Counted from the first letter of the stretch, positions 5,116 to 54,300 are shown. The stretch is 64,000 nt of DNA from an uncultured Bacteroidales bacterium (GCA_963825165.1 CAWGRY010000011.1:8642-72641); one strand, 5' to 3'. Made by a program: numbers and translations. The notes: generated from the sequence alone by a model not told the origin.

Positions 5116-8100
5116 ATGTCATTCAGAAGGGATAACAAACAGAAGACCAGCTACACGAAAATATCGATAGGGCTGGCATCGCCTGAAGAGATTCTTGACA
5201 AATCAAGCGGAGAAGTCCTGAAGCCTGAGACAATCAACTACCGTACATATAAGCCTGAACGCGACGGCCTCTTCTGCGAGAGGATCTTCGGCCCGGTCAA
5301 AGACTATGAATGTCATTGCGGGAAATACAAAAGGATACGGTATAAGGGAATTGTCTGCGACCGTTGCGGTGTTGAAGTTACGGAAAAGAAGGTGAGACGT
5401 GAACGTATGGGACACATCGCACTTGTAGTGCCGGTAGCTCATATATGGTACTTCAGATCACTTCCCAACAAGATCGGATACCTCCTGGGATTGCCTACAA
5501 AAAAGCTTGACAGCATAATATACTATGAAAAGTACGTTGTCATCAATCCTGGTGTAAAAGCTGTTGACGGTGTCAAATATCTCGATTTTCTTTCTGAAGA
5601 AGAGTATATGGAGATTGTTGAGTCACTGCCAAAGGAGAACCAGTATCTTGATGATGATCATCCTGACAAGTTCGTGGCAGAGATGGGGGCTGAGGCTCTC
5701 TACAAGCTGCTGGGCAAGCTTGATCTCGATGAACTGTCATATTCACTCCGTCACCGGGCAAACACCGAGACCTCTCAGCAGCGCAAGAGCGAGGCTCTCA
5801 AGAGGCTCCAGGTGGTTGAGGCATTCAGGGAGTCAAAGAACATCAACAGACCTGAGTGGATGATAGTTAAGATAGTACCGGTCATCCCGCCGGAGCTGAG
5901 ACCGCTTGTTCCGCTCGACGGCGGACGATTCGCTACCAGTGACCTTAATGACCTGTACCGCAGGGTGATAATACGCAATAACCGTCTGAAGAGACTGATA
6001 GAGATCAAGGCTCCCGAAGTGATCCTTCGTAATGAGAAAAGGATGCTGCAGGAAGCTGTCGACTCACTGTTTGACAACTCGCGCAAGGCGAATGCAGTGA
6101 AGACTGACGCCAACAGGCCTCTGAAATCGCTGTCTGACAGCCTCAAGGGCAAGCAGGGACGATTCCGTCAGAACCTTCTCGGTAAGAGGGTTGACTATTC
6201 AGCCCGTTCGGTCATTGTCGTCGGGCCTGAGCTGCACCTTCATGAGTGCGGCATACCCAAAGACATGGCTGCAGAGCTCTACAAGCCGTTCATTATACGC
6301 AAGCTCATCGAGCGCGGTATAGTCAAGACTGTCAAGAGCGCGAAGAAGATTGTAGACCGCAAGGATCCGGTTGTGTGGGATATACTTGAGAATGTGCTCA
6401 AGGGTCATCCCGTGTTGCTCAACCGTGCTCCGACACTTCACAGGCTGGGTATCCAGGCTTTCCAGCCCAAGCTTATCGAGGGTAAGGCCATCCAGCTGCA
6501 CCCGCTTGTTTGTACAGCTTTCAACGCTGACTTCGACGGTGACCAGATGGCTGTGCATCTTCCGCTGGGTAACGCCGCCATTATTGAGGCACAGATGCTG
6601 ATGCTTGCATCACATAACATCCTCAATCCCGCCAACGGTGCGCCTATTACAGTGCCTTCACAGGACATGGTCCTCGGGTTATATTACATCACCAAGGCTC
6701 GCAAAAGCACAGAGCAGATAAAAGTAAAAGGTGAAGGTTCATCGTTTTACTCACCTGATGAGGTGCGTATAGCATATAACGAAGGTAAGATTGACCTTCA
6801 CGCGGTCATTAAGGTAAAAGTTAACGACATGGTTGACGGTCAGAAGGTCAACCACCTGATCGAAACTACCGTAGGCCGTGTGCTCTTCAACGAGTTTGTG
6901 CCCGAAGAGGTGGGTTATCTCAACGAGCTGCTGACAAAGAAGTCGCTCAGGGATATTATCGGTACCGTACTCAAGAAAGCCGGGACAGCTAAGACAGCTG
7001 ATTTCCTTGATTCCATCAAGGATCTGGGATTCCGTATGGCGTTCGTCGGAGGTCTGTCATTTAACCTCGATGACGTCATCATACCCAAGGAGAAAGAAAT
7101 GTTTGTGGCAGAGGGTTATGAGCAGGTCGAAGAGGTGATCTCGAACTACAGCATGGGTTTCATCACAAACAATGAGAGGTACAACCAGATCATTGATATA
7201 TGGACACATGTCAATGCACGACTGACGCAGAGCCTCATGAAGCAGCTTTCAACAGACAAGCAGGGCTTCAACTCAGTGTATATGATGCTTGACTCAGGCG
7301 CAAGGGGCTCCAAGGAGCAGATACGTCAGCTCTCAGGAATGAGAGGCCTTATGGCTAAACCGCAGAAATCCGGATCAGCAACTTCAGAGATCATTGAGAA
7401 CCCGATCCTCTCCAACTTCAAGGAGGGTCTTTCCGTTCTCGAGTATTTCATCTCCACACACGGTGCACGAAAGGGTCTTGCAGACACCGCACTCAAGACT
7501 GCTGATGCAGGTTATCTGACCCGCCGTCTCGTTGACGTATCGCAGGATGTGATCATCACCGAGGAGGATTGCGGCACACTGCGCGGTCTTGTGGCTACCG
7601 CCATCAAGAACAACGAGGAGGTGGTTGAATCTCTCTATGACAGGATTCTTGGCCGTACCACGGTTCATGATATTTATAATCCTCTCACCGGCGAGCTGAT
7701 CGTCTCAGCCGGAGAGGAAATCACCGAGGAACTTGCTAACCGCATAGACGAATCACCAATTGAGCAGGTCGAGATACGATCAGTGCTCACATGTGAGTCA
7801 AAGAAGGGCGTCTGTGCCAAGTGTTACGGACGTAACCTTGCTACGGGGAGAATGGTTCAGAAGGGTGAGGCATGCGGTGTTATTGCTGCACAGAGCATCG
7901 GCGAGCCGGGCACACAGCTTACACTTCGTACTTTCCACGTCGGTGGTACTGCATCAAACATCACGACAGAATCAAGCCTTATTGCCAGATACGGCGGTAT
8001 AGCAGCCATTGAGGAGGTCAGAACGGTCTCAAGGAAAGATCCTGAGAAAGGCAAGGTAGATGTGGTCATCGGCCGTCTCGGTGAACTGAGGATCATGGAC

Positions 8101-19712: not shown

Positions 19713-19776
19713 GTGAATGATGTAAATCATTTAAGGAATCGTGTAACGTTTATAAGGGTAAGGCGCTCTACCTTGT
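19713..19776 (+). promoter_or_regulatory. 64-bp conserved promoter module, copy 1 (upstream of the 19801 gene)
   Basis: GTGAAT(19713)-ga-TGTAAA-N15-TGTAAC(19742)-N22-ACCTTGT(19770). Spacing is identical to the other seven copies. Confidence 0.7.
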
Positions 19777-21565: not shown

Positions 21566-22132
21566 ATGAAAAAAACAATGAAATTTCTGATCGGATTAAT
21601 TACTGCGATTATGATTACGGGTGTTGTCAGTGCCCAGCACGGCAACGCACCTGCAGGGCACGTAACCATTGGGATAAAGGGCGGGCTGAATTTTTACAAC
21701 ATAAATAATGACAACAATACCAGTTACGACCAGAGAACTGGATATAATTTTGGTTTGCTTGGCCATATCCACCGCAACAGCCAGTGGGCATTTCAGCCTG
21801 AACTTGTATATTCCGCCCAGGGTGCAAAAAATTATAATCTGGGTTATATTAATATACCCGTCCTGATCCAGTATATGTTTGACAATGGATTCAGGATACA
21901 AGCCGGCCCGCAGCTAGGTTTTCTTGTCAGTTCAGACAATGATATTGATTATAATCCCGTTGACTTTGCATTAAGTGTTGGTGTGAGCTATGTAGTTCCA
22001 TCGACGGGGTTTGGTCTTGATTTAAGATATAATCATGGATTAAACGATATAAATAAAAGCAGTGAAGTAAAAGCAACCAACAGGGGAATTCAGTTTGGCC
22101 TGTTTTACCTTTTTGGCCATAACACAAGGTAG
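21566..22132 (+). CDS. Small outer-membrane beta-barrel protein (porin-family / OMP_b-brl-like)
   Basis: Signal peptide MKKTMKFLIGLITAIMITGVVSAQ, alternating beta-strand pattern, aromatic C-terminus (GIQFGLFYLF). Confidence 0.65.
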   Translation: MKKTMKFLIGLITAIMITGVVSAQHGNAPAGHVTIGIKGGLNFYNINNDNNTSYDQRTGYNFGLLGHIHRNSQWAFQPELVYSAQGAKNYNLGYINIPVLIQYMFDNGFRIQAGPQLGFLVSSDNDIDYNPVDFALSVGVSYVVPSTGFGLDLRYNHGLNDINKSSEVKATNRGIQFGLFYLFGHNTR

Positions 22133-22563
22133 TCCTCTGAAAGCCCTTGCTTTCGCTGAATCTTTTTATATCATTGAACTTGCCTGCCAGTACAGTGACA
22201 TCTTTTTTCCCGAGTGGTATATTAACACCATAAGACAGATCGGTTTTGTAGTTCCTCCTGAAGACAGAAGTAAAAACTCTCTCTTTTGGAGGAATTTTTA
22301 CAGCTATTAAATCCTTTCACCGGACATTTCTGTTTGCGGCTCAGGACCTCATGGGAAGTGCGCGGCTGAATGACTCAATCATCCAGTTATCGGATACGAT
22401 TTTTATTAAAGTCAGAAACATAGCGGGAACATAGGTGTTATATTTCTGGTGTGCATGGAAGCTTCTATCCTGGATTTTTGAGTCAGAGGCTGGCAAGCGG
22501 CCTTTGGGATTTTCAAAAAAATCTTAAATTTGAAGAAGTAACTTTCCCTGTATACCCGGCATA

Positions 22564-23124
22564 TTGAAACTCTACATCAAAAATATGGTCAGCCTCCGTT
22601 GCATAATGCTGGTGAAATCGGAGTTGGAAAATCTGGGATTGCATTATGGTTCAGTTGAATTGTGCGAAGCTGAAATAACGGAGGATATTTCACCGGAGCA
22701 GCGCGAAGACCTCGCAATAGCACTCAAAAAGACCGGGCTTGAACTGATGCAGGACAAAAAGAACATCCTGGTTGAAAGAATAAAAGCAGTCATCATTGAC
22801 CTGGTGCATAATACCGATGAGCAGATCAAAATAAACCTATCCGACCACCTGAGCCAAAAACTCAATCACAATTACACCTATCTGGGAAATCTTTTTTCAG
22901 AGGTAAAGGGGGTTACCATTGAGAAGTTTTACCTGTCGCACAAAATTGAAAAGGCAAAGGAACTGCTGATATATGATGAACTTAATCTCACCGAAATAGC
23001 CTGGAAACTGCACTACAGCAGTGTAGCCCACCTTTCAAACCAGTTCAGGAAGATGACAGGGCTTACACCCTCCCAGTTTAAGAAACTGAAGAACAAAAAG
23101 CCCCGGGCTCTGGAAGATGTGTGA
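22564..23124 (+). CDS. AraC-family transcriptional regulator with a small HMA-like N-terminal domain that lacks CxxC
   Basis: C-terminal HTH_18 pattern (LTEIAWKLHYSSVAHLSNQFRKMTGLTPSQFKK). The N-terminus reads KNMVSLRCIMLVKSELENLGL. Its TGA stop lies inside the GTGAAT box of module copy 3. Confidence 0.75.
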   Translation: MKLYIKNMVSLRCIMLVKSELENLGLHYGSVELCEAEITEDISPEQREDLAIALKKTGLELMQDKKNILVERIKAVIIDLVHNTDEQIKINLSDHLSQKLNHNYTYLGNLFSEVKGVTIEKFYLSHKIEKAKELLIYDELNLTEIAWKLHYSSVAHLSNQFRKMTGLTPSQFKKLKNKKPRALEDV

Positions 23125-23184
23125 ATGATGTAACTTTTTCCTGAAATAATGTAAAGTTTCTCAGAATAAAGGATTTCAACTTTG
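23121..23184 (+). promoter_or_regulatory. 64-bp conserved promoter module, copy 3 (upstream of the small ORF and the kai operon)
   Basis: GTGAAT(23121)-ga-TGTAAC-N15-TGTAAA(23150)-N22-AACTTTG(23178). Confidence 0.65.
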
Positions 23185-23221
23185 TATTGTAATTTGGAAT
23201 CACTTTATACCGACTTTGTCC

Positions 23222-23371
23222 ATGATCATGAAAGCAAGAGATGATTTACTTACTGAGGACTTTAAAGTCCGATCAAAGCTAAAGTATGCCATTTTGATTT
23301 CCTACAGCCTTTCAATGTGCGTATGTTTAGTATTGGGCTCTATTATTTTTTTGATAGCCAGATTAACGTAG
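23222..23371 (+). CDS. Possible 49-aa single-TM peptide (below the ORF-track size cutoff)
   Basis: ATG 38 nt after module copy 3. Translates to MIMKARDDLLTEDFKVRSKLKYAILISYSLSMCVCLVLGSIIFLIARLT*. No homology known to me. Confidence 0.3.
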   Translation: MIMKARDDLLTEDFKVRSKLKYAILISYSLSMCVCLVLGSIIFLIARLT

Positions 23372-23545
23372 TGTCAGTATTAATCCGGATAATCTGGTTT
23401 ATTGCCAAAAACTGACTAATTATAATAGTCGGTGACTTTAATCAGTTTTAACTGATCATTAGACCAGGAAAAGCCGGAATTTAGCGCTTGTTGTATAGCG
23501 ATACATTGCCCGTAATCTAATATGACTTTATGTAATTGATAATAA

Positions 23546-25279
23546 ATGAAAAAAGCAGACCGCAAACCGGCAATTAAAAATCTTCACAAGTCTCCCACCG
23601 GGATCCAGGGATTTGATGAAATTACTGGCGGTGGATTGCCGGCAGGCAGACCATCCCTCGTATGCGGTGGAGCAGGATGCGGAAAGACACTTTTCGGATT
23701 AGAGTATCTTGTGCGGGGTGCAACTCAGTTTAATGAACCGGGTGTATTTATGTCATTCGAGGAAACCAATGAAGAAATAATACAAAATGTTGCTTCACTG
23801 GGCTTCGATCTGGAAGACCTTATTAAAAATAAAAAAATTGCACTTGATCATGTTCATATTGAACGCAGTGAAATAGAAGAAACCGGTGAATACGACCTGG
23901 AAGGTTTATTCATACGCCTTAATTTTGCTATTGATTCCATTGGGGCAAAGCGTGTTGTTCTTGATACGATTGAATCACTGTTTGCCGGATTGCCAAATCA
24001 GCTCATACTGCGCGCTGAACTGCGGCGATTGTTTCGCTGGCTAAAAGAAAAAGGTGTTACTGCAATCATAACAGGTGAGCGCGGAGGGGAGACCCTTACC
24101 AGACAGGGGTTGGAAGAGTATGTTTCAGACTGCGTTATTATGCTCGACCATCGTGTTACAGAGCAGACTTCCACACGTCGTTTACGGGTAGTTAAGTACC
24201 GTGGTTCCTTGCATGGGACAAATGAGTATCCGTTTCTGATTGATGAAAGCGGTTTTTCAGTTTTACCGGTGACTTCGCTGGGGTTAGAACATATTGTATC
24301 AAACAAAAGAGTCTCAAGTGGTATAAAAGCGCTTGACAATATGCTTGAAGGAAAAGGTTATTACCGCGGCAGCACGGTACTGGTTTCAGGCACTGCGGGA
24401 GTAGGAAAAACAAGTGTTGCAGCTCACTTTGCAGAGGCGGCATGTAAACGTGGTGAACGTGTACTATATTTCTGTTTTGAAGAATCTCCAAACCAGTTGA
24501 TGCGCAATATGCGTTCCATTGGAATAAAATTGGAGCACTGGGTGCAGAAAGGACTTCTTCAATTTCAGGCTACCCGGCCAACATTTTACGGCCTTGAAAT
24601 GCATCTGGCAGTAACTCACAAAGCTGTAAAATCATTTAAGCCTGATGTTGTCATTCTGGACCCAATAAATACTTTCATCCTGGGTGATAAGGTAAACGAA
24701 GTGAAAACGATGCTGATGCGTATTGTCGATTTTCTTAAGTTGAATCAAATTACAGCCTTGTTTACCAGCCTGACCTCAACCGAGAGGGCACTGGAAAGCT
24801 CCGATGTCGGCATATCATCTCTTATAGATACCTGGCTATTACTTCGCGAAATCGAATTAAACGGTGAACGGAACAGGGGAATGTATGTTCTTAAATCGCG
24901 CGGCATGGCTAATTCTAACCAGATCCGCGAATTCATTCTCACTAATCACGGCGTGGAATTACGTGAGGCTTATATTGGTGCCAGTGGAGTTTTAACCGGC
25001 TCAGCCCGTATTGCACAGGAAGCTCTTGAAAATGCCGAAGTTTTAACCCGTAAACAGGATATTGAACGAAAAAAACGTGAACTGGAACGAAAGCGAAAGG
25101 CAATGGAGGCTCAGATTGCTTTATTGAATGCCGATTTTAAGTCAGCAGAATCCGAAGCTGTTAAAATGATAAAAGCTGAACAGGACATGATTAAACGACT
25201 GGAACAGGATAAAATAGAAATGGCAGTCAGCAGAAAATCTGTTTCCGAAAACAGGAAAACCAGCAAATTGAAAAGATAA
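23546..25279 (+). CDS. kaiC: KaiC homolog (double RecA-like ATPase) with a roughly 78-aa charged coiled-coil C-terminal extension
   Basis: CI Walker A GGAGCGKT with FMSFEE; CII Walker A GTAGVGKT with FCFEES. ISSLIDT aligns with the ISTITDT phosphosite segment of cyanobacterial KaiC. The tail reads RKQDIERKKRELERKRKAMEAQIALL... Confidence 0.9.
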   Translation: MKKADRKPAIKNLHKSPTGIQGFDEITGGGLPAGRPSLVCGGAGCGKTLFGLEYLVRGATQFNEPGVFMSFEETNEEIIQNVASLGFDLEDLIKNKKIALDHVHIERSEIEETGEYDLEGLFIRLNFAIDSIGAKRVVLDTIESLFAGLPNQLILRAELRRLFRWLKEKGVTAIITGERGGETLTRQGLEEYVSDCVIMLDHRVTEQTSTRRLRVVKYRGSLHGTNEYPFLIDESGFSVLPVTSLGLEHIVSNKRVSSGIKALDNMLEGKGYYRGSTVLVSGTAGVGKTSVAAHFAEAACKRGERVLYFCFEESPNQLMRNMRSIGIKLEHWVQKGLLQFQATRPTFYGLEMHLAVTHKAVKSFKPDVVILDPINTFILGDKVNEVKTMLMRIVDFLKLNQITALFTSLTSTERALESSDVGISSLIDTWLLLREIELNGERNRGMYVLKSRGMANSNQIREFILTNHGVELREAYIGASGVLTGSARIAQEALENAEVLTRKQDIERKKRELERKRKAMEAQIALLNADFKSAESEAVKMIKAEQDMIKRLEQDKIEMAVSRKSVSENRKTSKLKR

Positions 25280-25295
25280 TTAAATCAGGAACCCT

Positions 25296-25637
25296 ATGAA
25301 ACTAAAAAAAGAAAATTCAGGTAAAAAACTCAAAAAAGGGAAACCGGCTAACAAGGCAGATGATAAGTGGGTGCTTCGTTTATACGTTGCAGGTCAGTCT
25401 CCAAAAGCTCTTACCGCATTGGCAAATCTGAAAAAAATATGTGCAGAACAATTAGAAGGGAAATACGGCATTGAAGTAATTGACCTTTTGATAAACCCGC
25501 AATTGGGTAAAGAGGATCAGATTCTTGCGTTGCCAACCTTAGTAAGAAAATTGCCGGTGCCTGTTCGTAAGATAATAGGCGATCTCTCAGATACTGAACG
25601 TGTTCTTGTCGGATTGGATTTGAAGGCAGTCAATTGA
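25296..25637 (+). CDS. kaiB: KaiB homolog, copy 1, with a Lys-rich N-terminal extension
   Basis: [85 protein letters not shown], a close match to the canonical KaiB pattern. Confidence 0.88.
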
Positions 25638-25662
25638 TATTTAAATACAAAAATTATCAGTC

Positions 25663-26016
25663 ATGACGATGAAAGAGAAAAAAGCGAAAGGATCAATAAC
25701 AAAGGTTGATCTGGCAATGTCTGAGTTTGACAAGGACAAATATATTCTGCGCTTATATATCACTGGTACAACGAATCGGTCCGTCCTGGCTCTTTCGAAC
25801 CTGAAGAAGATTTGCGAAGAGTATCTTGAAGGGCGATACGAACTGGAAGTGATTGACCTGTATCGGATGCCATCCCTGGCAAAAGATGAACAGATAATTG
25901 CGGCTCCTACATTGATAAAAAAGCTGCCGCTTCCGTTCCGTCGCATTATTGGCGATATGTCAGATGTAGAAAAAGTACTTATGGGGTTAGACCTCAGAAA
26001 GATAAAAGCCCTGTAA
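25663..26016 (+). CDS. kaiB: KaiB homolog, copy 2 (tandem paralog)
   Basis: YILRLYITGTTNRSVLALSNLKKICEEYLEGRYELEVIDLYRMPSLAKDEQIIAAPTLIKKLPLPFRRIIGDMSDVEKVLMGLDL. Confidence 0.88.
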   Translation: MTMKEKKAKGSITKVDLAMSEFDKDKYILRLYITGTTNRSVLALSNLKKICEEYLEGRYELEVIDLYRMPSLAKDEQIIAAPTLIKKLPLPFRRIIGDMSDVEKVLMGLDLRKIKAL

Positions 26017-26052
26017 AATTTTGAGGAATTTTAGCACATTTGATTTAATATA

Positions 26053-26775
26053 ATGACTTCAATGACCAAAACAAGAGAACAGCTCATAACTGAGAATGGC
26101 GAATTGCATTCCCGACTGGCTGAAACTATAGAAACGCTTTCAGCAATTCAAAGAGGTGATGTGGATGCTATTGTGGTGTCTGGTACCAATGGAGAACAAG
26201 TCTACTCGATCAGCTCTGCTGAAACACCTTACCGTACTTTCATAGAAGAAATGAACGAGGGAGCAGTTACTCTTTCCAGAAAAGGGATAATTATCTATTG
26301 TAATCAGAGATTTGCTGATTTTGTGTGCGAACCTGTTGAGCATGTAATTGGTTCGTACTTTAAGCGTTTCATTATCCCAAATGATAAATCAAAATTTGAA
26401 AAAGCACTTACTCAAAAAACTGATAATGAAAATAATGTTCTGATAATTTCACTGGTCAACTCATTATATCTGAAACTATCCTTTCAGATTTTACCTGCTT
26501 ATCTGCAGGGTGATTATTGCATACTGGTAGCTACTGACGTATCAGAAATTAAGAAGGAAGCGAAAAAACTCTTTGAATTATCCGGCTTATTGGAACAAAA
26601 ATTAGGTGTAATACAGCGGTTACGGATGCAACTTGTTGACAGAGCGATTGATCTAAAAGTAGAAATAAACAAATTCAGGAAAACCAATAAGAAACTGGTA
26701 ATGGAGATCGCAAAACATAAGCTGGTCGAAACTTCCTTAAAACAAAAACTAAAGCAAAAGAAGGCGACAGCTTGA
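26053..26775 (+). CDS. PAS-domain protein flanked by coiled coils, with no kinase or other output domain
   Basis: LSAIQRGDVDAIVVSG..GEQVYSISSAETPYRTFIEEMNEGAVTLSRKGIIIYCNQRFADF is a PAS pattern typical of sensor kinases. The C-terminal 70 aa are heptad-like, and the protein ends at 240 aa. Confidence 0.7.
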   Translation: MTSMTKTREQLITENGELHSRLAETIETLSAIQRGDVDAIVVSGTNGEQVYSISSAETPYRTFIEEMNEGAVTLSRKGIIIYCNQRFADFVCEPVEHVIGSYFKRFIIPNDKSKFEKALTQKTDNENNVLIISLVNSLYLKLSFQILPAYLQGDYCILVATDVSEIKKEAKKLFELSGLLEQKLGVIQRLRMQLVDRAIDLKVEINKFRKTNKKLVMEIAKHKLVETSLKQKLKQKKATA

Positions 26776-26781
26776 ATTTCA

Positions 26782-28536
26782 ATGAAAAGACTTTTATTCA
26801 TTCTCCTTGCGTTCCTCTTGCTTAACAGTTGCGCCATTATCCGGTTCCCTGAGTTTGGCAAGGTCCCCAAAAACCCGGGCAACTACCCGAAGTTTACTGA
26901 GAGGGATTACCTGATCGGAAAGCTTGACGAAGACCGCGCCGGCTATGATGTAACTTTCTATGATCTGGACCTTATCCTTGATCCGGATAACAGAAAGCTT
27001 GGGGGTAGGGTAGATATTCATTTTAAAGCACTGGCAGAGCTTAGCAAGATCCGCATTGACCTTTATAAAAATCTTGACATCATCAGCCTGAAGGTGTCGG
27101 GACAGGAGATCCCTTTTTCACGAAATGACAGGGCAGTGATAGCATCTCTTCCTGATCCATTGGTTATTGGACGGGACTATACTATTATTGTCGAGTACGA
27201 TGGTAAACCAACCAGCGCAAAAAATCCCCCATGGAGCGGCGGTATGGTATGGAAAAAAGACGGGAATGACAACCCCTGGGTCGGTGTGACATGCGAAACG
27301 GAAGGGGGCAGCATCTGGTTTCCCTGCAAGGACCACCTTTCCGATGAACCCGACAGTGTCAGGCTCCGCATGACTGTTCCTGAAGGATTGCAGGTTGTTT
27401 CAAACGGTAAAATGAAGAGCCATACGTCAAATACTGGGAGTGAAACATTTACATGGGGCACCAATTATCCTGTCAATATCTACAATATGACCTTCTATGC
27501 AGGGAAATTTGCACATTTCAGCGACACAATGCTTACTCCGCAAGGCATCCTTAACCTTAACTATTATGTTTTGCCCCAAAACCTGGAAAGAGCAAAAAAG
27601 CAATTTGTACAGGTAAAGGATATTATCAATCTCTATGCCAGGTCTTTCGGACCCTACCCGTGGATTAATGATGGATTCCGGCTTGTTGAGGCACCATTTG
27701 AAGGAATGGAGCATCAAACAGCTATAGCTTACGGAAGCGGCTTTTCAAACCGGGCATGGCTGGGAGGCGATTATGTAATCATACATGAAGCTGCCCATGA
27801 GTGGTGGGGTAATGCCGTATCAGTCAGCGACTTCAGCGATATATGGCTGCAGGAGGGATTTGCCACATACTCCGAAATGCTCTTTGCAGAACATAAAATG
27901 GGATACGAAAACTCGTTGTTGTATGCCAGGTACTTTATAGCCGGCTCGATAAAGAATAAACTGCCGGTTGTGGGTCCTGCGAGTGTCAGCTATTGGAACA
28001 GCAGGGACAATGATGTATACAATAAGGGAGCCATGGTGCTGCACACAATACGTAACGTCCTGAACGACAGCACTCTTTTCTTTGATATACTGCAGACATT
28101 CTATCATGAGCATGCATTATCATCGCATGTGACAACCACCGATTTCAAAGAGGTTGTTGAGAGGAAGACTGGGAAGGACTGGGATAAATTCTTTGAAGCA
28201 TACCTTTACCGCCGCGAGGTTCCGGTTCTTTACTGGTATTATGACCCTGCCGGCATAGATGAAGGTTACCCAACGGCTGAAAAGAATGTGGTGCCCGTTA
28301 TTGCGGCAAAATGGCTGAATGCTCCTGATGGCTTCAGCATGCCTGTTGAATTATATTGTAAGGAAGAGAATGTCTCATTTAGGATAGAGGTGACAACAAA
28401 ACCAACACTTTTTTACTTTGAGGATATGACAGGATGCGGTAAGCTGATCTGTAATAAGAAACTTTCTTACTGCGATGCTGTGACGGATATCAGCGTGCTG
28501 GCTGAAGCCAGGTCTTCCGGAACGGGAGATCAATAA
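26782..28536 (+). CDS. M1-family metallopeptidase (aminopeptidase N-like) lipoprotein
   Basis: Lipobox LLLNSC, HEAAHEWWG zinc motif (HExxH) and downstream WLQEGFATYSE. It starts 6 nt after the PAS gene stop. Confidence 0.8.
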   Translation: MKRLLFILLAFLLLNSCAIIRFPEFGKVPKNPGNYPKFTERDYLIGKLDEDRAGYDVTFYDLDLILDPDNRKLGGRVDIHFKALAELSKIRIDLYKNLDIISLKVSGQEIPFSRNDRAVIASLPDPLVIGRDYTIIVEYDGKPTSAKNPPWSGGMVWKKDGNDNPWVGVTCETEGGSIWFPCKDHLSDEPDSVRLRMTVPEGLQVVSNGKMKSHTSNTGSETFTWGTNYPVNIYNMTFYAGKFAHFSDTMLTPQGILNLNYYVLPQNLERAKKQFVQVKDIINLYARSFGPYPWINDGFRLVEAPFEGMEHQTAIAYGSGFSNRAWLGGDYVIIHEAAHEWWGNAVSVSDFSDIWLQEGFATYSEMLFAEHKMGYENSLLYARYFIAGSIKNKLPVVGPASVSYWNSRDNDVYNKGAMVLHTIRNVLNDSTLFFDILQTFYHEHALSSHVTTTDFKEVVERKTGKDWDKFFEAYLYRREVPVLYWYYDPAGIDEGYPTAEKNVVPVIAAKWLNAPDGFSMPVELYCKEENVSFRIEVTTKPTLFYFEDMTGCGKLICNKKLSYCDAVTDISVLAEARSSGTGDQ

Positions 28537-28587
28537 AACCACCTGTTAATTGTCTCATGCATTCCGTAGCTGAAATTTATGGAATGT

Positions 28588-28651
28588 GTGAATTATGTAA
28601 TTATTTCTCAAAATAATGTAACGGTTTGCCAGACCGGGTGGTGTATTTTTA
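28588..28651 (+). promoter_or_regulatory. 64-bp conserved promoter module, copy 4 (upstream of the 28731-31836 gene string)
   Basis: GTGAAT(28588)-ta-TGTAAT-N15-TGTAAC(28617)-N22-ATTTTTA(28645). Confidence 0.7.
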
Positions 28652-28730
28652 CAATTGTAATCTTTAAAGGATTAAAGCGAAATTGATATTATAAATAACT
28701 ATTAAATCATACTTACACAAATCAGGTATC

Positions 28731-29060
28731 ATGAAAAAGTTTGCTTTTTGTTTAATGGCGACAGTGTTGTCATTAACTTTTATCCCACTTTCATTAAGCG
28801 CTGCACCCAGGGCCGCGCCTTCCTCATCGGCTAACACCAATCCCGTAAGCCCGGCAGATGCTGCTAAAGCTAACGAATTACTGCTCAGGTTAAACGAAAT
28901 TAAGACATCGGACAAATCTGAACTGACAGCGTCAGAAAAGAAGGAACTGCGAAAAGAGGTTCGTTCAATCAGCAGTGAACTTAAGGCAGTAAGTGGCGGC
29001 ATTTACATTTCAGCAGCCGTACTGCTTATTATTGTTATTCTGTTAATCGTTCTGTTGTAA
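28731..29060 (+). CDS. Hypothetical secreted, C-terminally TM-anchored protein
   Basis: Signal peptide MKKFAFCLMATVLSLTFIPLSLSAA, a charged helical middle region, and a C-terminal TM segment (ISAAVLLIIVILLIVLL). Confidence 0.5.
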   Translation: MKKFAFCLMATVLSLTFIPLSLSAAPRAAPSSSANTNPVSPADAAKANELLLRLNEIKTSDKSELTASEKKELRKEVRSISSELKAVSGGIYISAAVLLIIVILLIVLL

Positions 29061-29080
29061 AAAATTAAAAATAAAGATCA

Positions 29081-29235
29081 TGAGAGATTTACTTTATGTA
29101 GTTGCGGTAATACTGATCATTGCATGGGCAGTAGGCTTTATCGGGTTCCATGTCGGAGGCCTGATACACATTCTGCTTGTCATTGCAATCATTGCAGTTT
29201 TAGTGAGAGTCATCCAGGGGAAAAAAGTCCTCTAG
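29081..29235 (+). pseudogene. lmo0937-family-like small membrane protein, interrupted by a 1-nt deletion at about 29161
   Basis: Frame 1 gives MRDLLYVVAVILIIAWAVGFIGFHVGG then TGA. The next frame continues LIHILLVIAIIAVLVRVIQGKKVL*. Joined, they resemble the roughly 50-aa lmo0937-type family. This is from memory and needs an HMM check. Confidence 0.55.
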
Positions 29236-29373
29236 GTCAATCGTTATATAAATAATCATTAAGTCCACTCTGAAAACTTCCTGTGTAATCTCTTCTGGCT
29301 GAAATACAAACTGATCAGTTATTGGGGTTTAAAACAGGATAATCCGGGACGGGCTTACTAAATTAAAGAAATC

Positions 29374-29652
29374 ATGAGCTCAGGAAAAGTAGTATTAGCA
29401 TTATTGGCCGGCGTCGCTGCCGGTGCAGTGTTAGGGATTCTGTTTGCCCCGGAAAAGGGGTCTGAAACACGAAAAAAGATAGCCGGAGAAGGAAATGACC
29501 TCAAGGAATCGATGAAAGAAAAATTCAACCAGTTTCTTGATGACATATCTGAAAAATATGAAAATGTAAAGGAAGAAGTTACTGATCTTACTGAAAAGGA
29601 CAAGACGACAAAAGACGAGGCTGACAAGAAAGCAAAGACTGCTCCGGGTTAA
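29374..29652 (+). CDS. YtxH-domain protein
   Basis: GKVVLALLAGVAAGAVLGILFAPEKGSETRKKIA is the characteristic YtxH N-terminus, followed by a charged helical tail. Confidence 0.65.
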   Translation: MSSGKVVLALLAGVAAGAVLGILFAPEKGSETRKKIAGEGNDLKESMKEKFNQFLDDISEKYENVKEEVTDLTEKDKTTKDEADKKAKTAPG

Positions 29653-30465: not shown

Positions 30466-31587
30466 ATGACAAATGAAGGGCTGAAACTACCGGCGTATAT
30501 TAAGGTGAGCATTTTGTTAATTGGAATTGCGGTTCTGTTGACAATGCTCTACATTGCAAGGAGCATCCTTGTACCTGTGGTTTTCGCAACCATTTTAGCC
30601 ATAGTACTCCATCCGGTAGTAAACTTCTTTATAGAGAAAAAAGTTAACAGAGTTTTAGCAATCATCTTAACAATGTTGCTGACCTTTCTGGTAATAGCAG
30701 CAATTGGAGCGCTTATCTTTTCGCAGGCAAGCCGCTTGGGTGATTCATTGCCCGTACTGGCTGACAAATTCAACGAGATGATTAACCAGGCCATCACCTG
30801 GGTTTCCGGCCACTTCGATATAAACACTCACAAGTTAAATGATTGGATCATAAAAGTCCGGGGTGAACTAATTAATTCCAGCAGCGCTATGATCGGAAAC
30901 ACCCTTGTCTCCCTCGGCAACCTGTTAATAGTGATTTTTTTGATCCCGGTTTACATCTTTATGCTCTTGTTTTACAATCCGATCCTGATTGAGTTTATTC
31001 ACAGGCTCTTTAGCTCAGGACAGCAGAGCAAGGTGAGCGCAATAGTTACTGAGACAAAGACAGTTATTCAGCGATATCTCGTCGGCCTGATCATTGAGGC
31101 TGGAATAGTAGCTGCTATGAACACCATTGCTCTTCTGGCTCTCGGGATTGAATATGCTCTGCTACTCGGTATTATAGGCGCATTGCTGAATATCATTCCT
31201 TATATAGGAGGATTGGTTGCGGTAGCATTACCGATGCTCGTCGCCTTGATCACCAAGGAATCCGGATGGTACCCCGTTTATATTATGGTGATATACTATA
31301 TCATCCAGCTTATTGACAACAATTACATCGTTCCCAAAATAGTTGCTTCAAAAGTAAAACTCAATGCGCTGTTCTCCCTTCTGGTGGTTTTTGCGGGTAA
31401 TGCATTATGGGGGATTCCCGGCATGTTTATCTCCATACCGCTGCTGGCCATAGTAAAACTTGTCTGTGACCACGTCGAACCTCTGAAGCCATGGGGCTTC
31501 CTGTTAGGAGATACCATGCCATCTCCTCTTAAGATCAAATCTATTTTTAAGAAACACACTACCCGGGTTGGTAAAACCAAAACCTGA
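30466..31587 (+). CDS. AI-2E family transporter (PerM/YhhT-like permease)
   Basis: 373 aa with about 8 TM segments and the family-typical C-terminal region (IPYIGGLVAVALP...DNNYIVPKIV...GIPGMFISIPLLAIVK). Confidence 0.75.
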   Translation: MTNEGLKLPAYIKVSILLIGIAVLLTMLYIARSILVPVVFATILAIVLHPVVNFFIEKKVNRVLAIILTMLLTFLVIAAIGALIFSQASRLGDSLPVLADKFNEMINQAITWVSGHFDINTHKLNDWIIKVRGELINSSSAMIGNTLVSLGNLLIVIFLIPVYIFMLLFYNPILIEFIHRLFSSGQQSKVSAIVTETKTVIQRYLVGLIIEAGIVAAMNTIALLALGIEYALLLGIIGALLNIIPYIGGLVAVALPMLVALITKESGWYPVYIMVIYYIIQLIDNNYIVPKIVASKVKLNALFSLLVVFAGNALWGIPGMFISIPLLAIVKLVCDHVEPLKPWGFLLGDTMPSPLKIKSIFKKHTTRVGKTKT

Positions 31588-39838: not shown

Positions 39839-42766
39839 ATGCGAGTGAAATCCAGCAAACCTGTATTGAAGTCATCATCAGAAAGAAAGACTTCTGTCAG
39901 GAATACCGAAAAGTTCCCGATAATTGGCATAGGAGCATCTGCGGGCGGACTTGAAGCATTGGAGCAGTTCCTGAGTAATGTGCCCGAGAAAAGCGGAATG
40001 GCCTTTATTGTGATCCAGCATCTTGATCCTACCCAAAAGGGAATGTTGCCGGAATTGCTGCAGAGGATTACCAGTATGAAAGTGCATCAGGTAACAGACC
40101 GTATTCCGGTCATGATAAACTCTGTATATGTAATCCCTCCGAACACCAGCATGTCAATATTAAATGGGATGCTGCACCTGTTTGAGCCTGTCGAATCACG
40201 GGGAATGCGGCTCCCGATTGATTATTTCTTTCGCTCTCTGGCAGATGACAGGAAGGATCTCAGTATAGGTATTATTCTCTCAGGGATGGGATCTGATGGC
40301 AGTGCCGGCCTCCGTGCCATTAAAGAAAAAAACGGGCTGGTGATGGTGCAGGATCCTTCCGATGCCAAATTCGACAGTATGCCACGCAGTGCTATCGATG
40401 CCGTGACCATTGATATAGTCGCTGCAGCCCGGGAGCTGCCTGCCAGGCTTATTGAATGCCTGAAGCATATCCCCGCTATCAGGTCAGATCTTAGTAACGT
40501 GCTGAAAGATAAAAGCTCGCTTGAAAAGATTATTATTCTCCTCCGGAATCAGACTGGTAACGACTTTTCCTTATATAAGAAAAATACACTCTACCGTCGG
40601 ATAGAAAGACGCATGAGCGTCCACAAAATTGATAGAATTGTCTCATATGTACACTTCTTACAGGGAAATCCCAAAGAAGTAGAGATCCTTTTCAAAGAAT
40701 TATTGATTGGCGTAACCAATTTCTTCAGGGATGCTCCGGTATGGGAAAAACTGAAAGAAAAGATCTTGCCGGCCGTGATTTCCAGGGCCCAGCCGGGTTC
40801 AATATTAAGAGCGTGGATTCCGGGGTGTTCAACAGGTGAAGAGGCATATTCGCTGGCAATAATATTTAAAGAGGCGCTTGCAAAGAGTAATCAGCATGGA
40901 GGACCTTCATTACAGATATTTGCTACTGATGTTGATGCCGATGTTATAGATATTGCAAGAAAAGGATCGTTCACGGCAAATATTGCAGCCGATGTATCTC
41001 CTGATCGCCTTGATCGCTTCTTCATTTCATCCGACGAAGGCTACCGGATAAAAACGGAAATAAGGGAAATGGTTGTGTTTGCACAACATAATATTATCCT
41101 GCATCCGCCTTTTACCCGGCTTGATATCCTCTCATGCCGTAATCTGCTGATATACATGGATGCTGAGCTGCAAAAGAAGCTTATCGGAATGTTTTACTAC
41201 AGCATCAATCCGGATGGAATAATGTTGTTGGGCAGCTCCGAAACTCCCGGAAACCAGAATCATCTTTTTGCCACTGTGGATGGCAGGTTGAAGATCTACA
41301 AGAGAACTCCTACAAGCCATCTGCCCGAGGTATTTGATTTTCCGTCTTCGTTTTCCAGATCCAGATCATCCATAGCGAAAAACCCGGTGCCAGACTGGCA
41401 AGGCCTCAATATTCAAACACTTGCCGACCAGATTTTGCTGGAACATTACGGACCCTCCGGTGTGCTTGTAAATGAGTACGGTGATATTATCTATATAAAC
41501 GGACATACAGGTAAATATCTGGAACCGGCTGTCGGCAAGGCAAACCTGAATATTTTTGCCATGTTGCGGGAAGACCTGCGCAACGAATTTCATACTGCCT
41601 TTCATCGGACGGTTACAAAAAAAGAAACAGTTGTTCTGCGCAACCTCAGAGTGAAAACAAATGGCATCACCCATACCGTAAATATCGACATTAAATGGAT
41701 TGATAAACCGGAGCTTTTGTACGGTACGGTGATGATAATTTTTACTGATGTAAAGGAGCCTGAAGACCTCCGTTTGCTTCCAAAAACAGGTAAGAAAAGT
41801 GTGCATGGTATCAGACAGAAGGAGATGGAAAACGAACTGCAGCGAATGCGTGACACGATGCAGAATACTCTGGAAGAAGTGCAGACTTCTCAGGAAGAAC
41901 TGAGATCCACAAATGAGGAGCTACAGTCCACAAATGAAGAACTGCAGTCTACTAATGAAGAACTTACCACGTCCAAGGAAGAAATGCAGAGTCTGAATGA
42001 AGAACTTCAGACCGTGAATGCAGAATTACAGGCAAAGGTAGATGATTATTCGCGGGTCAACAATGACATGAAAAACCTGCTCAACAGCACCGAAATTGCC
42101 ACACTGTTTCTCGACAAAGAGTTAAATATCCGTCGCTTTACCCTTGCCGCGACTAAAATATTCAAACTTATAAAAAGCGACATAGGACGACCTTTCACAG
42201 ACCAGGTATCAGACCTTTATTATCCGGGATTGGCTGACGATGCCATCGAAGTATTAAGAACACTGGTATTTATACAGAAAGAAATTCCTGCCAGAGACGA
42301 GCGGTGGTTTTTGGTTCGTATAATGCCATACCGAACTCACGATGACAGAATAGATGGACTTGTCATCACTTTTATCAATATCACAGATCATAAGAGGCTT
42401 GAAGAAAAATTACTTGAATACGAGAAGAAGTTCCATCTTTTGCTGGACGCTTCCCCGGATATAAAAGTAATATTGTCAGATGACATGAAAGTATTGGAAT
42501 TTAATCCTGAAGCTGAATTGTTCTTCGGTAAAAAACGTGATGATTGCATAAATAAGAATTTTATTCAGATGTTTGTTCCCGGGGAATCTCAGAAAAGCAC
42601 TGAAAGAAAAATAAAAGAACTGCTGTGCAAAGGTTTGAATGACAAACTGAAAATGAAGATAACTGCCGCCAATGGGAATATATCAGGTGTCGAATGTTTC
42701 GTTGCGGTTTCTCTTAATAACCTGAATAAGGCAGAAGGAATGATATTATCAATTAAAAATCAATAA
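39839..42766 (+). CDS. CheB-methylesterase / CheR-methyltransferase fusion followed by PAS domains and a coiled coil, with no kinase domain
   Basis: CheB-like IIGIGASAGGLEALEQF..FIVIQHLDP. CheR-like LRAWIPGCSTGEEAYSLAI...FATDVD...ILSCRNLLIY. EELxSTN heptads, then PAS (LNSTEIATLFLDKELNIRRFT) and a second PAS. Ends at 975 aa. Confidence 0.8.
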   Translation: MRVKSSKPVLKSSSERKTSVRNTEKFPIIGIGASAGGLEALEQFLSNVPEKSGMAFIVIQHLDPTQKGMLPELLQRITSMKVHQVTDRIPVMINSVYVIPPNTSMSILNGMLHLFEPVESRGMRLPIDYFFRSLADDRKDLSIGIILSGMGSDGSAGLRAIKEKNGLVMVQDPSDAKFDSMPRSAIDAVTIDIVAAARELPARLIECLKHIPAIRSDLSNVLKDKSSLEKIIILLRNQTGNDFSLYKKNTLYRRIERRMSVHKIDRIVSYVHFLQGNPKEVEILFKELLIGVTNFFRDAPVWEKLKEKILPAVISRAQPGSILRAWIPGCSTGEEAYSLAIIFKEALAKSNQHGGPSLQIFATDVDADVIDIARKGSFTANIAADVSPDRLDRFFISSDEGYRIKTEIREMVVFAQHNIILHPPFTRLDILSCRNLLIYMDAELQKKLIGMFYYSINPDGIMLLGSSETPGNQNHLFATVDGRLKIYKRTPTSHLPEVFDFPSSFSRSRSSIAKNPVPDWQGLNIQTLADQILLEHYGPSGVLVNEYGDIIYINGHTGKYLEPAVGKANLNIFAMLREDLRNEFHTAFHRTVTKKETVVLRNLRVKTNGITHTVNIDIKWIDKPELLYGTVMIIFTDVKEPEDLRLLPKTGKKSVHGIRQKEMENELQRMRDTMQNTLEEVQTSQEELRSTNEELQSTNEELQSTNEELTTSKEEMQSLNEELQTVNAELQAKVDDYSRVNNDMKNLLNSTEIATLFLDKELNIRRFTLAATKIFKLIKSDIGRPFTDQVSDLYYPGLADDAIEVLRTLVFIQKEIPARDERWFLVRIMPYRTHDDRIDGLVITFINITDHKRLEEKLLEYEKKFHLLLDASPDIKVILSDDMKVLEFNPEAELFFGKKRDDCINKNFIQMFVPGESQKSTERKIKELLCKGLNDKLKMKITAANGNISGVECFVAVSLNNLNKAEGMILSIKNQ
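41894..42034 (+). repeat. In-frame 21-nt periodic coding repeat (about 6-7 heptads, the first three nearly identical)
   Basis: GAAGAACTGAGATCCACAAAT / GAGGAGCTACAGTCCACAAAT / GAAGAACTGCAGTCTACTAAT, encoding EELRSTN EELQSTN EELQSTN EELTTSK EEMQSLN EELQTVN AELQ. Confidence 0.75.
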
Positions 42767-42770
42767 AGCC

Positions 42771-43319
42771 ATGAGTAAGAAAGCTCAGAATCTTACAGAT
42801 ACTCAACTACTGCGTCTGAACGCCGAAGAAAAACTGAAGGAAAAACCCAAAAGAACTGGCACCAGGGTTTTGGAAGCAGATACAAAGAAGCTCCTCCATG
42901 AACTACAGGTGCACCAGATAGAACTGGAAATGCAGAATGAGGAGTTGCGGCAGGCAAATGAAAGAGCAGAGGAAGCCCTTAGAAAGTATACAATGCTGTA
43001 TGATTTTGCCCCGATGGGCTATTTTACCCTTGACAGTGACGGCAGTATCAGTGAGCTTAATTTTACAGGGGCTGAAATGCTGGGCGATAAACGCTTTAGT
43101 CTGCTAAACAGTAATTTTAAACTGTTCGTTTCCGAATCTTCCAAATCTGTATTTAATAAGTTTTTCAAAAATGTATATACCAGTGAGGCTAAAGTGTCAT
43201 GTGAGCTGATGCTCGGTTATAATGGCAAGCCTTTGTGCCAGGTATATATGGAGGGAATAGTTTTAGGAGATGACCGCAAATGCCTCTTGTCAGTAGTCGA
43301 TATCTCGGGATTCAAATGA
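42771..43319 (+). CDS. Coiled-coil plus single PAS domain protein (looks like the N-terminal module of a sensor kinase, no output domain)
   Basis: LHELQVHQIELEMQNEELRQANERAEEA followed by YDFAPMGYFTLDSDGSISELNFTGAEMLG. Starts 4 nt after the CheB/CheR gene stop. Confidence 0.6.
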   Translation: MSKKAQNLTDTQLLRLNAEEKLKEKPKRTGTRVLEADTKKLLHELQVHQIELEMQNEELRQANERAEEALRKYTMLYDFAPMGYFTLDSDGSISELNFTGAEMLGDKRFSLLNSNFKLFVSESSKSVFNKFFKNVYTSEAKVSCELMLGYNGKPLCQVYMEGIVLGDDRKCLLSVVDISGFK

Positions 43320-54050: not shown

Positions 54051-54190
54051 TACTGATCCTGAACATACCATTTCTTTGAACCTGTTCAGTTTGAAAAAAT
54101 CGGTTACCTGGAATTAATAATATGCACACTGGCAGGTTTTTTCAGCATTACTCACAAGGATCTGACAAATCTGAACATTCATTGCAGATG
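54047..54190 (+). pseudogene. Frameshifted 3' continuation of the P-type ATPase (last TM helices)
   Basis: After ...WIVGGAIIF* the sequence continues in shifted frames as LILILNIPFL / NLFSLKK / IGYLELIICTLAGFFSIT.... This matches the usual P-type ATPase terminal helices. At least 3 single-nt shifts lie within about 60 nt. The exact end is uncertain. Confidence 0.5.
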
Positions 54191-54300
54191 CTTATATGAT
54201 TTTGAAAAAAAGAACTATCATCAAAGCTGATACTGGCCCAAACCAGGTTAAGGCTGAGAGCCAGGATCAGAAAAGATATCTGTTGCACCGTCTTTTTCAT
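54148..54300 (-). pseudogene. Truncated paralog (N-terminal 50 codons) of the small Cys-rich WQPPK protein at 55534..55842
   Basis: MKKTVQQISFLILALSLNLVWASISFDDSSFFQNHISICNECSDLSDPCE* aligns with MGKAIKQISVLTLVLSLNLVWVNSSFADIAFFNNQLCISGECQDSSD.... A 23-nt stretch is identical between 54237-54259 and 55779-55801. Confidence 0.5.

Follow-up and report, generated by a model that had tools for sequence, protein, structure and literature searches.

A KaiBC cassette with paired KaiB paralogs and a kinase-less PAS protein behind a predicted activator-type promoter in a Bacteroidales genome

Introduction

What kind of Kai system is encoded where kaiC is followed by two kaiB genes and a PAS protein gene devoid of a kinase part, and how might such a system be read out? 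The question is raised by a 64,000-nucleotide (nt) stretch of DNA from an uncultured Bacteroidales bacterium (GCA_963825165.1, CAWGRY010000011.1:8642-72641; the whole stretch is hereafter referred to as the window, and positions are counted from its first letter). Four genes form the cassette, with protein lengths given in amino acids (aa):

23546-25279, + strand: kaiC (577 aa), matched by NF006799, twice by PF06745, and by the Rhodobacter sphaeroides KaiC structure 8DBA
25296-25637, + strand: KaiB-a (113 aa), PF07689; position-1 paralog, closer to the R. sphaeroides KaiB
25663-26016, + strand: KaiB-b (117 aa), PF07689; position-2 paralog, faster evolving
26053-26775, + strand: kinase-less Kai-linked PAS protein (240 aa), PF00989; without HisKA or HATPase_c

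An earlier reading of the DNA alone (the original prediction) had proposed these genes and, 6 nt after the PAS gene, one for an M1-family peptidase. The list of open reading frames (ORFs) reproduces all five coordinates, on the + strand, with intergenic gaps of 16, 25, 36 and 6 nt from kaiC through to the peptidase gene. For the PAS gene, gene callers start at the ATG at 26062, which gives 237 aa. I consider the identities of the genes secure, with very little room for doubt.

The KaiC2-type KaiBC core, its occurrence in Bacteroidetes, the tailed KaiC clade and the kaiC-kaiB-kinase synteny are already published. The tail-bearing clade consists mainly of KaiC2 proteins, which have two serines and are extended by ~50 residues (Pitsawong et al., 2023; PMC10076222). 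Passages of Schmelling et al. (2017; PMC5520375) report a group of Bacteroidetes that encodes only KaiB2/KaiC2-like proteins, and passages of De Luca et al. (2011; PMC3164672) report kaiC-kaiB-histidine kinase (or GGDEF/EAL) synteny outside cyanobacteria. As far as searches of open-access papers and preprints show, three features are apparently undescribed: the KaiB pair with its wide distribution, the PAS/coiled-coil protein that is kinase-less and strictly Kai-linked, and the stress promoter of activator type. In the same literature no paper testing Kai function in Bacteroidota was found, in agreement with a statement of the original prediction.

The reading that I favor, and regard as reasonably probable, is that of a KaiA-independent KaiBC phospho-timer of the KaiC2/R. 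sphaeroides type, with a kinase-less PAS readout and a shared, activator-dependent promoter.

KaiC and its C-terminal extension

Profile searches identify the 577-aa protein as a true double-domain KaiC, of the KaiC2/R. sphaeroides type by its sequence. PF06745 matches it twice (E 7e-106), and with the NCBIfam model NF006799 it reaches 745.9 bits (cut-off 408), over model positions 7-515 of 515. Direct reading, together with the alignment to 8DBA, locates the following features, by which both ATPase domains look active:

23666-23689, + strand: CI Walker A, GGAGCGKT (residues 41-48)
23747-23764, + strand: CI EE pair, FMSFEE (residues 68-73)
24389-24412, + strand: CII Walker A, GTAGVGKT (residues 282-289)
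24470-24487, + strand: CII EE pair, FCFEES (residues 309-314)
24815-24820, + strand: phosphosite pair S424/S425, within ISSLIDT (residues 423-429)
25004-25276, + strand: C-terminal extension (residues 487-577), from the 8DBA tail alignment, 81 homologs and the heptad contrast

Weak secondary matches to RadA, DnaB_C and RecA models raise the possibility of a generic RecA/RadA/DnaB-like ATPase misread as KaiC. However, these matches fall far under their cut-offs (55 bits against 403 for TIGR00416) where NF006799 reaches 746 against 408, and solved KaiC structures are matched end to end. The generic identity is rejected on these scores, and its probability is next to nil.

Among solved structures the closest is the R. 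sphaeroides KaiC dodecamer 8DBA (686.7 bits), aligned over residues 13-547 of 577, and the window KaiC is 61% identical to that of R. sphaeroides KD131 over residues 15-499. Cyanobacterial KaiCs score ~330 bits, and their alignments end near residues 490-509. S424 and S425 lie opposite S413 and S414 of the R. sphaeroides protein, which are replaced by Glu in the phosphomimetic entry 8FWI. The protein is not of the cyanobacterial KaiC1 type: TIGR02655 scores 354.6 bits against a cut-off of 546.25, and the site is Ser-Ser rather than Ser-Thr.

The extension is a real, conserved heptad helix, homologous to the helix that bundles two R. sphaeroides KaiC hexamers, because it is gap-free in homologs, periodic, and aligned with the 8DBA tail. 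Residues 487-566 are essentially without gaps in the alignment of 81 homologs, in which positions 500, 506, 513, 520, 524, 527, 531, 538, 541/542, 552 and 559 are conserved as hydrophobic. Residues 499-566 contain no Pro or Gly and 46% charged residues, and 60% of the a/d positions are hydrophobic, compared with 15% elsewhere, a contrast equalled in 2 of 2000 shuffles.

For this protein the original prediction holds throughout: both Walker A motifs, both EE pairs and the Ser-Ser pair are where it had placed them, the charged-heptad tail has its register and is conserved, and the proposed likeness to KaiA-independent proteobacterial hourglass timers is matched by the alignment of the tail with the R. 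sphaeroides extension up to residue 547 (PMC10076222). The profiles likewise favor KaiC over the RadA/Sms or RecA-like identity that it had named as a check. KaiA-, SasA- and CikA-like proteins, which it had reported missing, were not found among the ~50 window proteins scanned.

Two position-specific KaiB paralogs

Both KaiB proteins carry the PF07689 domain (87.9 bits for KaiB-a and 86.6 for KaiB-b, against a cut-off of 27), and they are 58% identical. They score 96-110 bits against R. sphaeroides KaiB, the value of 110 being that of KaiB-a with 8FWJ_M, and 60-62 bits against the Legionella KaiB 4KUN. The fold-switch residues G88 and D90 of Synechococcus elongatus KaiB are kept, in VGLDL (KaiB-a) and MGLDL (KaiB-b) compared with IGLDL; R. 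sphaeroides KaiB reads VNLKM, i.e. Asn and Lys at the equivalent sites. The equivalent of S. elongatus K57 is Gln in both window proteins.

A survey of one genome per species gave 80 loci with a KaiC 60-88% identical to that of the window. These span Bacteroidota, Planctomycetota, Acidobacteriota, Pseudomonadota, Chloroflexota, Verrucomicrobiota, Thermodesulfobacteriota and others, as well as archaea (Methanoperedens, Bathyarchaeota). All their KaiCs are ~560-665 aa long and therefore carry the tail, and the order kaiC-kaiB-kaiB-PAS gene is found in the great majority of loci. Two kaiB genes are present in 64 loci and one in 14 (4 of them cut by a contig end), with four in locus L035 and three in locus L017, where the third is an artefact of one copy split by a frameshift.

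The paralogs were compared in the 65 loci with two complete kaiB genes (130 proteins). Position-1 proteins have a median identity of 74.7% among themselves and position-2 proteins one of 61.4%, against 56.6% between positions and 57.8% for pairs from the same locus. For all 130, the nearest relative in another locus holds the same position. In a neighbor-joining tree (without support values) the position-2 proteins form one clade, joined only by the last gene of the L035 array and the last L017 piece; the position-specific paralogy does not depend on this unsupported tree, because the nearest-neighbor result stands alone. R. sphaeroides KaiB is nearer to position 1 (63.9%) than to position 2 (54.2%), and most single KaiBs likewise group with position 1. 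The two KaiBs are thus, by sequence comparison, old and position-specific paralogs conserved across phyla, and not a peculiarity of this genome as the original prediction had presented them. No paper on such a position-specific pair was found among the open-access papers and preprints.

The two positions also differ in their N-terminal extensions. That of KaiB-a is 26 aa long, Lys-rich (10 K/R, 3 D/E) and ends in DKW; at position 1 the extensions vary in general, most of them finishing with an acidic residue, one other residue and Trp. The KaiB-b extension is 28 aa long (7 K/R, 5 D/E), and across phyla the position-2 extensions show a recurring, semi-conserved (S/T)xxF(E/D)xA(L/M)-like motif. 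That the two extensions differ, as proposed originally, is correct; the basic character claimed for both is clear in KaiB-a and mild in KaiB-b.

Two loci of the survey stand out by their kaiB number. In L035 (6727-8182), from a Planctomycetota metagenome-assembled genome (MAG), four tandem kaiB genes lie between kaiC and a PAS kinase gene; in the neighbor-joining tree two belong to the position-1 clade and one to the position-2 clade, and B3 falls between the clades. In L017, from a Rikenellaceae MAG, kaiC and the first kaiB each occur in two tblastn pieces (7593-7598 and 7958), and these splits are most likely assembly indels, not pseudogenes.

A PAS protein without a kinase

The fourth cassette protein is matched by PF00989 (27.8 bits against 22.6) and TIGR00229 (27.6 against 22.9), and family scans found neither HisKA nor HATPase_c in it. 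It is made of two parts:

residues 1-176: helix and PAS module
residues ~166-236: clade-specific heptad C-terminal helix

The helix comprises ~70 residues. Its heptad contrast is equalled in 37 of 2000 shuffles, and in the AlphaFold2 (AF2) model, of which the terminal helices alone were used, residues 164-239 have a predicted local distance difference test score (pLDDT) of 85-91. Its sole His (H222) is not conserved in the family. Since both kinase domains are missing and the helix His is unconserved, the protein is not a histidine kinase. The original description of a PAS and coiled-coil protein without a transmitter is thus supported, as is its remark that a PAS histidine kinase usually occupies this place elsewhere: among 48 long partners from other loci, HATPase_c is found in 42, HisKA in 36 (others have HWE, HisKA_2 or HisKA_3) and a receiver domain in 20, with the H-box consensus SHELxxPL.

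The gene behind the second kaiB codes for 232-250 aa where KaiC is at least 79% identical to that of the window, in loci whose taxa include Bacteroidales, Rikenellaceae, Prolixibacteraceae, Lentimicrobium, Mariniphaga and Draconibacterium assignments, and for 296-1077 aa in the other loci. In total, 58 loci of the PAS-only clade were seen, with partners of 232-260 aa. Homologs of the window protein form 575 clusters, and the best 120 of these are all 226-244 aa long, with PAS alone among their precomputed domains. Of the metagenome contigs seeded with the PAS protein, 35 extend 350 nt or more upstream of the PAS gene, and in every one of these kaiB immediately precedes it. The short, kinase-less form is no artefact, and in the Bacteroidales-type clade it is fixed and strictly linked to Kai.

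Short and long partners share their N-terminal module, whose consensus is LxxRLxEAEETLxAIRxGEVDALVV ... QVYTL ... PYR ... EGAxTL ... ILYCNxRFA, or more loosely LxxRLxExEExLxAIRxGEVDAxVV ... YR ... EGA ... YxN. Aligning the two families with hhalign gives a probability of 100% (E 9e-52) over positions 4-181 and nothing further, and the N-terminus of the R. sphaeroides HWE kinase is 40% identical to the module over 84 aa (E 7e-16). In the kinase family, neither the linker nor the DHp region has similarity to the C-terminal helix that hhalign could detect. When the PDB was searched with a profile of the window protein, the only matches were a generic PAS core (3MFX, E 2e-5) and spurious coiled-coils, and no solved structure covered the Kai-linked module.

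Could the short gene be the decaying, functionless remnant of a kinase, with the output of the cassette lost? It evolves faster than kaiC (47-70% against 79-88% identity in the same genomes), and shortened kinase-less partners also occur in a few other lineages (296 aa in L031, 362 aa in L042). However, the frame is intact, at 232-260 aa, in 37 of 37 complete metagenome copies and in all genome copies, the narrow length range holds for the 120 best clusters, and 46 columns are invariant in 20 genomes, including positions of the C-terminal helix (L190, R191, N212, L215). A new, conserved helix stands in place of the kinase region, which is therefore more than a simple truncation. Conservation largely refutes the remnant explanation, which I consider very improbable.

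Alternatively, the protein may be half of a split sensor kinase, its coiled-coil pairing with a kinase or effector encoded elsewhere for output through a phosphorelay. This would fit the long heptad helix with its invariant Asn212, as in dimeric signalling helices, and the identity of the N-terminal module with that of true kinases; the window also has a 7TMR-DISM kinase (44988-47087) and a kinase-less CheB-CheR-PAS protein (39839-42766). Against it, no kinase gene is conserved beside the cassette in the 58 PAS-only loci, where the downstream neighbors vary, and the helix resembles neither the linker nor the DHp of the kinase family and lacks a conserved His. The 7TMR-DISM kinase is the sole histidine kinase of the window and lies ~18 kb from the cassette. 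A split kinase is in my view unlikely, though less so than a remnant.

Further PAS genes were seen in related loci and in the window. A second helix-plus-PAS-module gene lies a few kb downstream of the first in L042 (11901-12410, Geobacteraceae) and in L058 (10333-10929, Methylococcaceae), so the Kai-linked module can be duplicated within one locus. The window CheB-CheR-PAS_10-PAS fusion (975 aa) ends without an output domain and is thus a second kinase-less PAS signalling protein; 4 nt after it follows a 182-aa ORF (42771-43319) with no Pfam match. Kinship between this fusion and the cassette PAS protein was considered and rejected, as they show no similarity, although the Joint Genome Institute labels some homologs of the latter 'CheB/CheR fusion'.

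A promoter module shared with envelope and stress genes

Upstream of kaiC lie a regulator gene, a promoter module and a small ORF:

22564-23124, + strand: AraC/XylS-family regulator (186 aa), HTH_18 at residues 96-174 (64 bits)
23116-23184, + strand: promoter module, two AATnATGTAAC-type direct repeats 21 bp apart, with TGTAA at 23129 and 23150
23177-23184, + strand: -7-box-like CAACTTTG, with a predicted transcription start near 23190
23216-23371, + strand: small ORF (51 aa) from the ORF list, between the module and kaiC

The pattern GTGAATnATGTAA-N(12-18)-TGTAA has 6 exact copies in the window and none in shuffles. Module copies are found at 19713, 21445, 23121, 28588, 32596 (- strand), 34343 and 38708, the last being a looser copy. 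They front genes for a 538-aa unknown protein; an outer-membrane protein (OMP) beta-barrel; the small ORF and kaiC; a 109-aa protein followed by YtxH, a holin-X-like protein and an AI-2E transporter; a 203-aa protein (minus strand); MlaE, MlaF and MlaD; and an M48 peptidase. Together they look like an activator-dependent envelope and stress regulon.

In Bacteroidetes the -7 promoter element is TAnnTTTG, with a -33 element ~19-21 nt upstream, and in the class II geometry of AraC/XylS-family activators the site overlaps the -35/-33 element of a housekeeping-sigma promoter. Taken from the window and from related loci, 50 unique module instances give a gap-free alignment: the TGTAA repeats start 21 nt apart, and (T/c)AnnTTTG starts 27 nt past the start of the second TGTAA, i.e. 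21 nt past the end of TGTAAC, with no variation in length. The distance from the second repeat to the start codon downstream is 40-110 nt. The proximal repeat would therefore occupy the -33 region and the distal one ~-55 to -60, as in class II activation, and the module is predicted to be an activator-type promoter with a Bacteroidetes -7 box.

Of the 27 PAS-only loci with enough flank, 16 have the module upstream of kaiC and on its strand; of 36 PAS-kinase loci, none does. In 14 of 26 well-flanked PAS-only loci an AraC-family gene (186 aa) is the immediate neighbor of the cassette, and 17 have such a gene at some place in the locus, again against 0 of 36; this linkage of regulator and module to the cassette is confounded by phylogeny. 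In the window, and likewise in L003, L009 and L021, the AraC-like gene ends in a stop codon that overlaps a module copy. This genomic linkage makes the AraC-like protein, whose N-terminal ~90 aa are uncharacterised, a candidate activator of the module.

The original prediction had put the kai operon behind a copy of this module; the copy at 23121 does lie upstream of kaiC, with the 51-aa ORF in between. The product of this ORF has a hydrophobic C-terminal half, and tblastn finds it at the same position, with 43-75% identity, in L025, L085, L103, L106 and L107; it is not called in the public record of L081. In this subclade the transcript probably begins with this ORF; in most other loci the module lies 99-164 nt from kaiC. 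Rfam models gave no match anywhere in the window, so the long kaiC leader has no known riboswitch. A sigma-70 and terminator scan of 22000-29500, a method ill-suited to Bacteroidetes promoters, found 22 elements against 16.4 expected, which is near background.

Downstream of the PAS gene lies the peptidase gene:

26782-28536, + strand: M1-family peptidase (584 aa), Pfam M1 68.6 bits, with a lipoprotein-type signal (MKRLLFILLAFLLLNSC)

Its membership of the Kai system is rejected. The gene after the PAS gene varies (M1, AraC-like or OMP), M1 follows in some loci only, and in L003 it has its own module copy. Because of this variable position and separate module copy, I treat M1 as a further regulon member that joined the operon here, probably co-transcribed with the cassette in this subclade. 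Its N-terminus (26782-26832) carries a lipoprotein-type signal (LLLNSC) and it is therefore probably an exported envelope enzyme, which suits the regulon and not a Kai function.

Two further observations concern the composition of the window. G+C is 0.40-0.45 over ~20000-44000, a region that holds the kai cassette and all module copies, against 0.46-0.51 in the flanks with rpoBC and metabolic genes, and this region may be an island of distinct composition. Where the G+C of the window is lowest (0.36), a 302-aa minus-strand ORF without a Pfam match is bounded by the two copies of a 140-nt direct repeat (54145-54284 and 55687-55826; 1542 nt apart, 71% identity).

A possible mechanism, and the host

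How would such a cassette work? By analogy with R. sphaeroides (PMC10076222), the tail helix would join two KaiC hexamers into a dodecamer and keep the A-loop exposed, so that KaiC would autophosphorylate without KaiA. KaiB bound to the CI ring would then speed ATP hydrolysis and dephosphorylation as the ATP:ADP ratio falls, which would make the system an hourglass run by energy state rather than a free-running clock. On the output side, the strict linkage and conservation of the PAS N-terminal module, and the precedents of KidA and of Pseudomonas described below, lead me to infer that it docks on the KaiB/KaiC complex. The Bacteroidales form would keep this docking and lose phosphotransfer; with the transmitter replaced by a putative dimeric coiled-coil, readout would go through protein-protein contact or sequestration.

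Being on a promoter common to envelope and stress genes, the kai cassette would be made together with that regulon. One may speculate further that the PAS/coiled-coil protein hands the KaiC/KaiB state on, through direct contact, to some transcription factor, for which the cassette-linked AraC-like regulator is the best candidate; this activator would in turn drive the envelope and stress regulon including the kai operon. This loop is a doubtful extension, but if true it would place transcription-coupled feedback around an energy-driven hourglass in dark, anoxic sediment bacteria. Just as speculatively, the second KaiB paralog, missing from the one system studied, may serve this output arm as adaptor in most Kai-bearing non-cyanobacteria.

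The presence of rplL, rpoB and rpoC in the window indicates that the kai locus is chromosomal. Genes for pyruvate formate-lyase and its activase, a BcrAD/2-hydroxyglutaryl-CoA-dehydratase-type activase and ferredoxin-like proteins, together with closest genomes that are sediment, wetland and soil MAGs, suggest an anaerobic, non-phototrophic host.

Several points weigh against the hourglass reading. Such a host has no obvious day-night cue. What is said above of dodecamers, autophosphorylation and the binding of KaiB is, for this clade, all carried over from R. sphaeroides. Both KaiBs score just under the NCBIfam KaiB equivalog cut-offs (NF006798, cut-off 110: 109.4 for KaiB-a and 100.5 for KaiB-b; TIGR02654, cut-off 145.3: 104.2 and 95.7). 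The AF2 model of the PAS protein, built on a 38-sequence alignment, has a mean pLDDT of 61, and below 50 in the PAS core. Mirror-tree and partial Mantel tests of the PAS module against the KaiBs were positive for both (r 0.35 and 0.21) and picked neither KaiB-a nor KaiB-b as its partner. Lastly, a weak terminator-like hairpin with a T-run (23385-23397) lies in the 175-nt gap between the small ORF and kaiC, so that kaiC may also have its own promoter.

The main rival is that the cassette is a non-timing stress switch, as has been proposed for KaiC homologs of Legionella and Pseudomonas: through its phosphorylation KaiC would signal energy or redox stress, and stress resistance would be adjusted with no interval measured. 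The company of the cassette suits this explanation, as the same module fronts YtxH, holin-X-like, OMP, OmpA, Mla and M48 genes, as does a host that looks like a dark-living anaerobe. KaiC2 homologs are linked to stress in Legionella (in passages of PMC5520375) and in Pseudomonas (bioRxiv 10.1101/2022.01.26.477890), and the R. sphaeroides cassette has a gene for a universal stress protein in its vicinity. However, the closest characterised relative, at 61% identity, acts as an hourglass timer, and the timer-relevant residues and the tail are all conserved. A purely non-timing switch is a possibility to be taken seriously, well short of probable, and it overlaps with the hourglass reading, because an hourglass driven by ATP:ADP is also an energy sensor.

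For Kai timers outside cyanobacteria, work so far has been based on a single structural model, that of R. sphaeroides with its one KaiB and full kinase. The common form of the tailed-KaiC cassette has two distinct and old KaiB paralogs and a partner whose N-terminal module is common to bacteria and archaea. In the Bacteroidales form the part presumed to dock on Kai stands alone in a 240-aa protein, which should express easily for binding and structural work, and an anaerobic sediment host with an envelope and stress promoter is a setting in which to ask what a Kai hourglass measures without light. Cultured relatives with the same cassette (Mariniphaga, Draconibacterium and Maribellus MAG assignments) suggest that genetics may prove feasible. 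The finding is directly testable and useful to Kai specialists, and does not conflict with current understanding.

Comparison with known Kai systems

The Legionella pneumophila KaiBC system is similar to that of the window in being a KaiC2/KaiB2-type pair in a non-phototroph, but its KaiB (4KUN) is much more distant from the window KaiBs than the R. sphaeroides protein. Legionella KaiC2 homologs have been linked to the stress response (as cited in passages of PMC5520375). The systems surveyed by De Luca et al. and Schmelling et al. have, in the passages concerned, the same gene order, the two serines of KaiC2 and the extension; those passages are silent on the position-specific KaiB paralog pair, on the N-terminal module that the partners share and on the Bacteroidales form without a kinase.

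For the PAS protein, two precedents are relevant. S. elongatus KidA binds fold-switched KaiB via its PAS domains and alters the period, and its authors note that PAS genes adjoin kaiBC in many non-cyanobacteria (PMC9478674). By its description KidA is, like the window protein, a PAS protein, and it works on the oscillator by binding, not phosphotransfer; it differs in having four PAS domains with GGDEF and EAL domains, and in being encoded outside the kai operon. In Pseudomonas putida, the N-terminal PAS of the kinase encoded beside kaiC suffices to bind KaiC, and the phenotype of the KaiC-kinase system relates to stress resistance (bioRxiv 10.1101/2022.01.26.477890). The Pseudomonas groups studied have a complete kinase and no KaiB partner in the cassette, whereas the window has two KaiBs and no kinase.

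In Pararhizobium, plasmid p3 (L131) carries kaiC, kaiB, a gene for a 'KaiB family protein' and then a hybrid kinase gene; the Prokaryotic Genome Annotation Pipeline (PGAP) names the first gene alone kaiB, and the second 'KaiB family'. An AI-2E family transporter gene lies near this cassette, as one does in the window module regulon (30466-31587); with two cases only, this may be a coincidence.

The closest comparison is with R. sphaeroides (KaiC 8DBA/8FWI, KaiB 8FWJ). Both systems are without KaiA (in the window, among the proteins scanned), have the Ser-Ser phosphosite and the tail, and place kaiB after kaiC; the KD131 record lists kaiC, one KaiB-family gene and then an HWE histidine kinase gene, which opens with the same helix-plus-PAS module as the window PAS protein. 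The crystallised kaiC is found on plasmid pRSKD131A of this strain (L130, 4477-8674), where a universal stress protein gene lies two genes past the kinase. The R. sphaeroides cassette is thus plasmid-borne, in a phototroph, and that of the window is chromosomal, in a likely anaerobe. R. sphaeroides has a full HWE histidine kinase where the window partner is kinase-less, and a single 89-aa KaiB without an N-terminal extension where the window has two, both extended. With its single KaiB, the one system studied structurally is therefore without a component that most of its relatives have.

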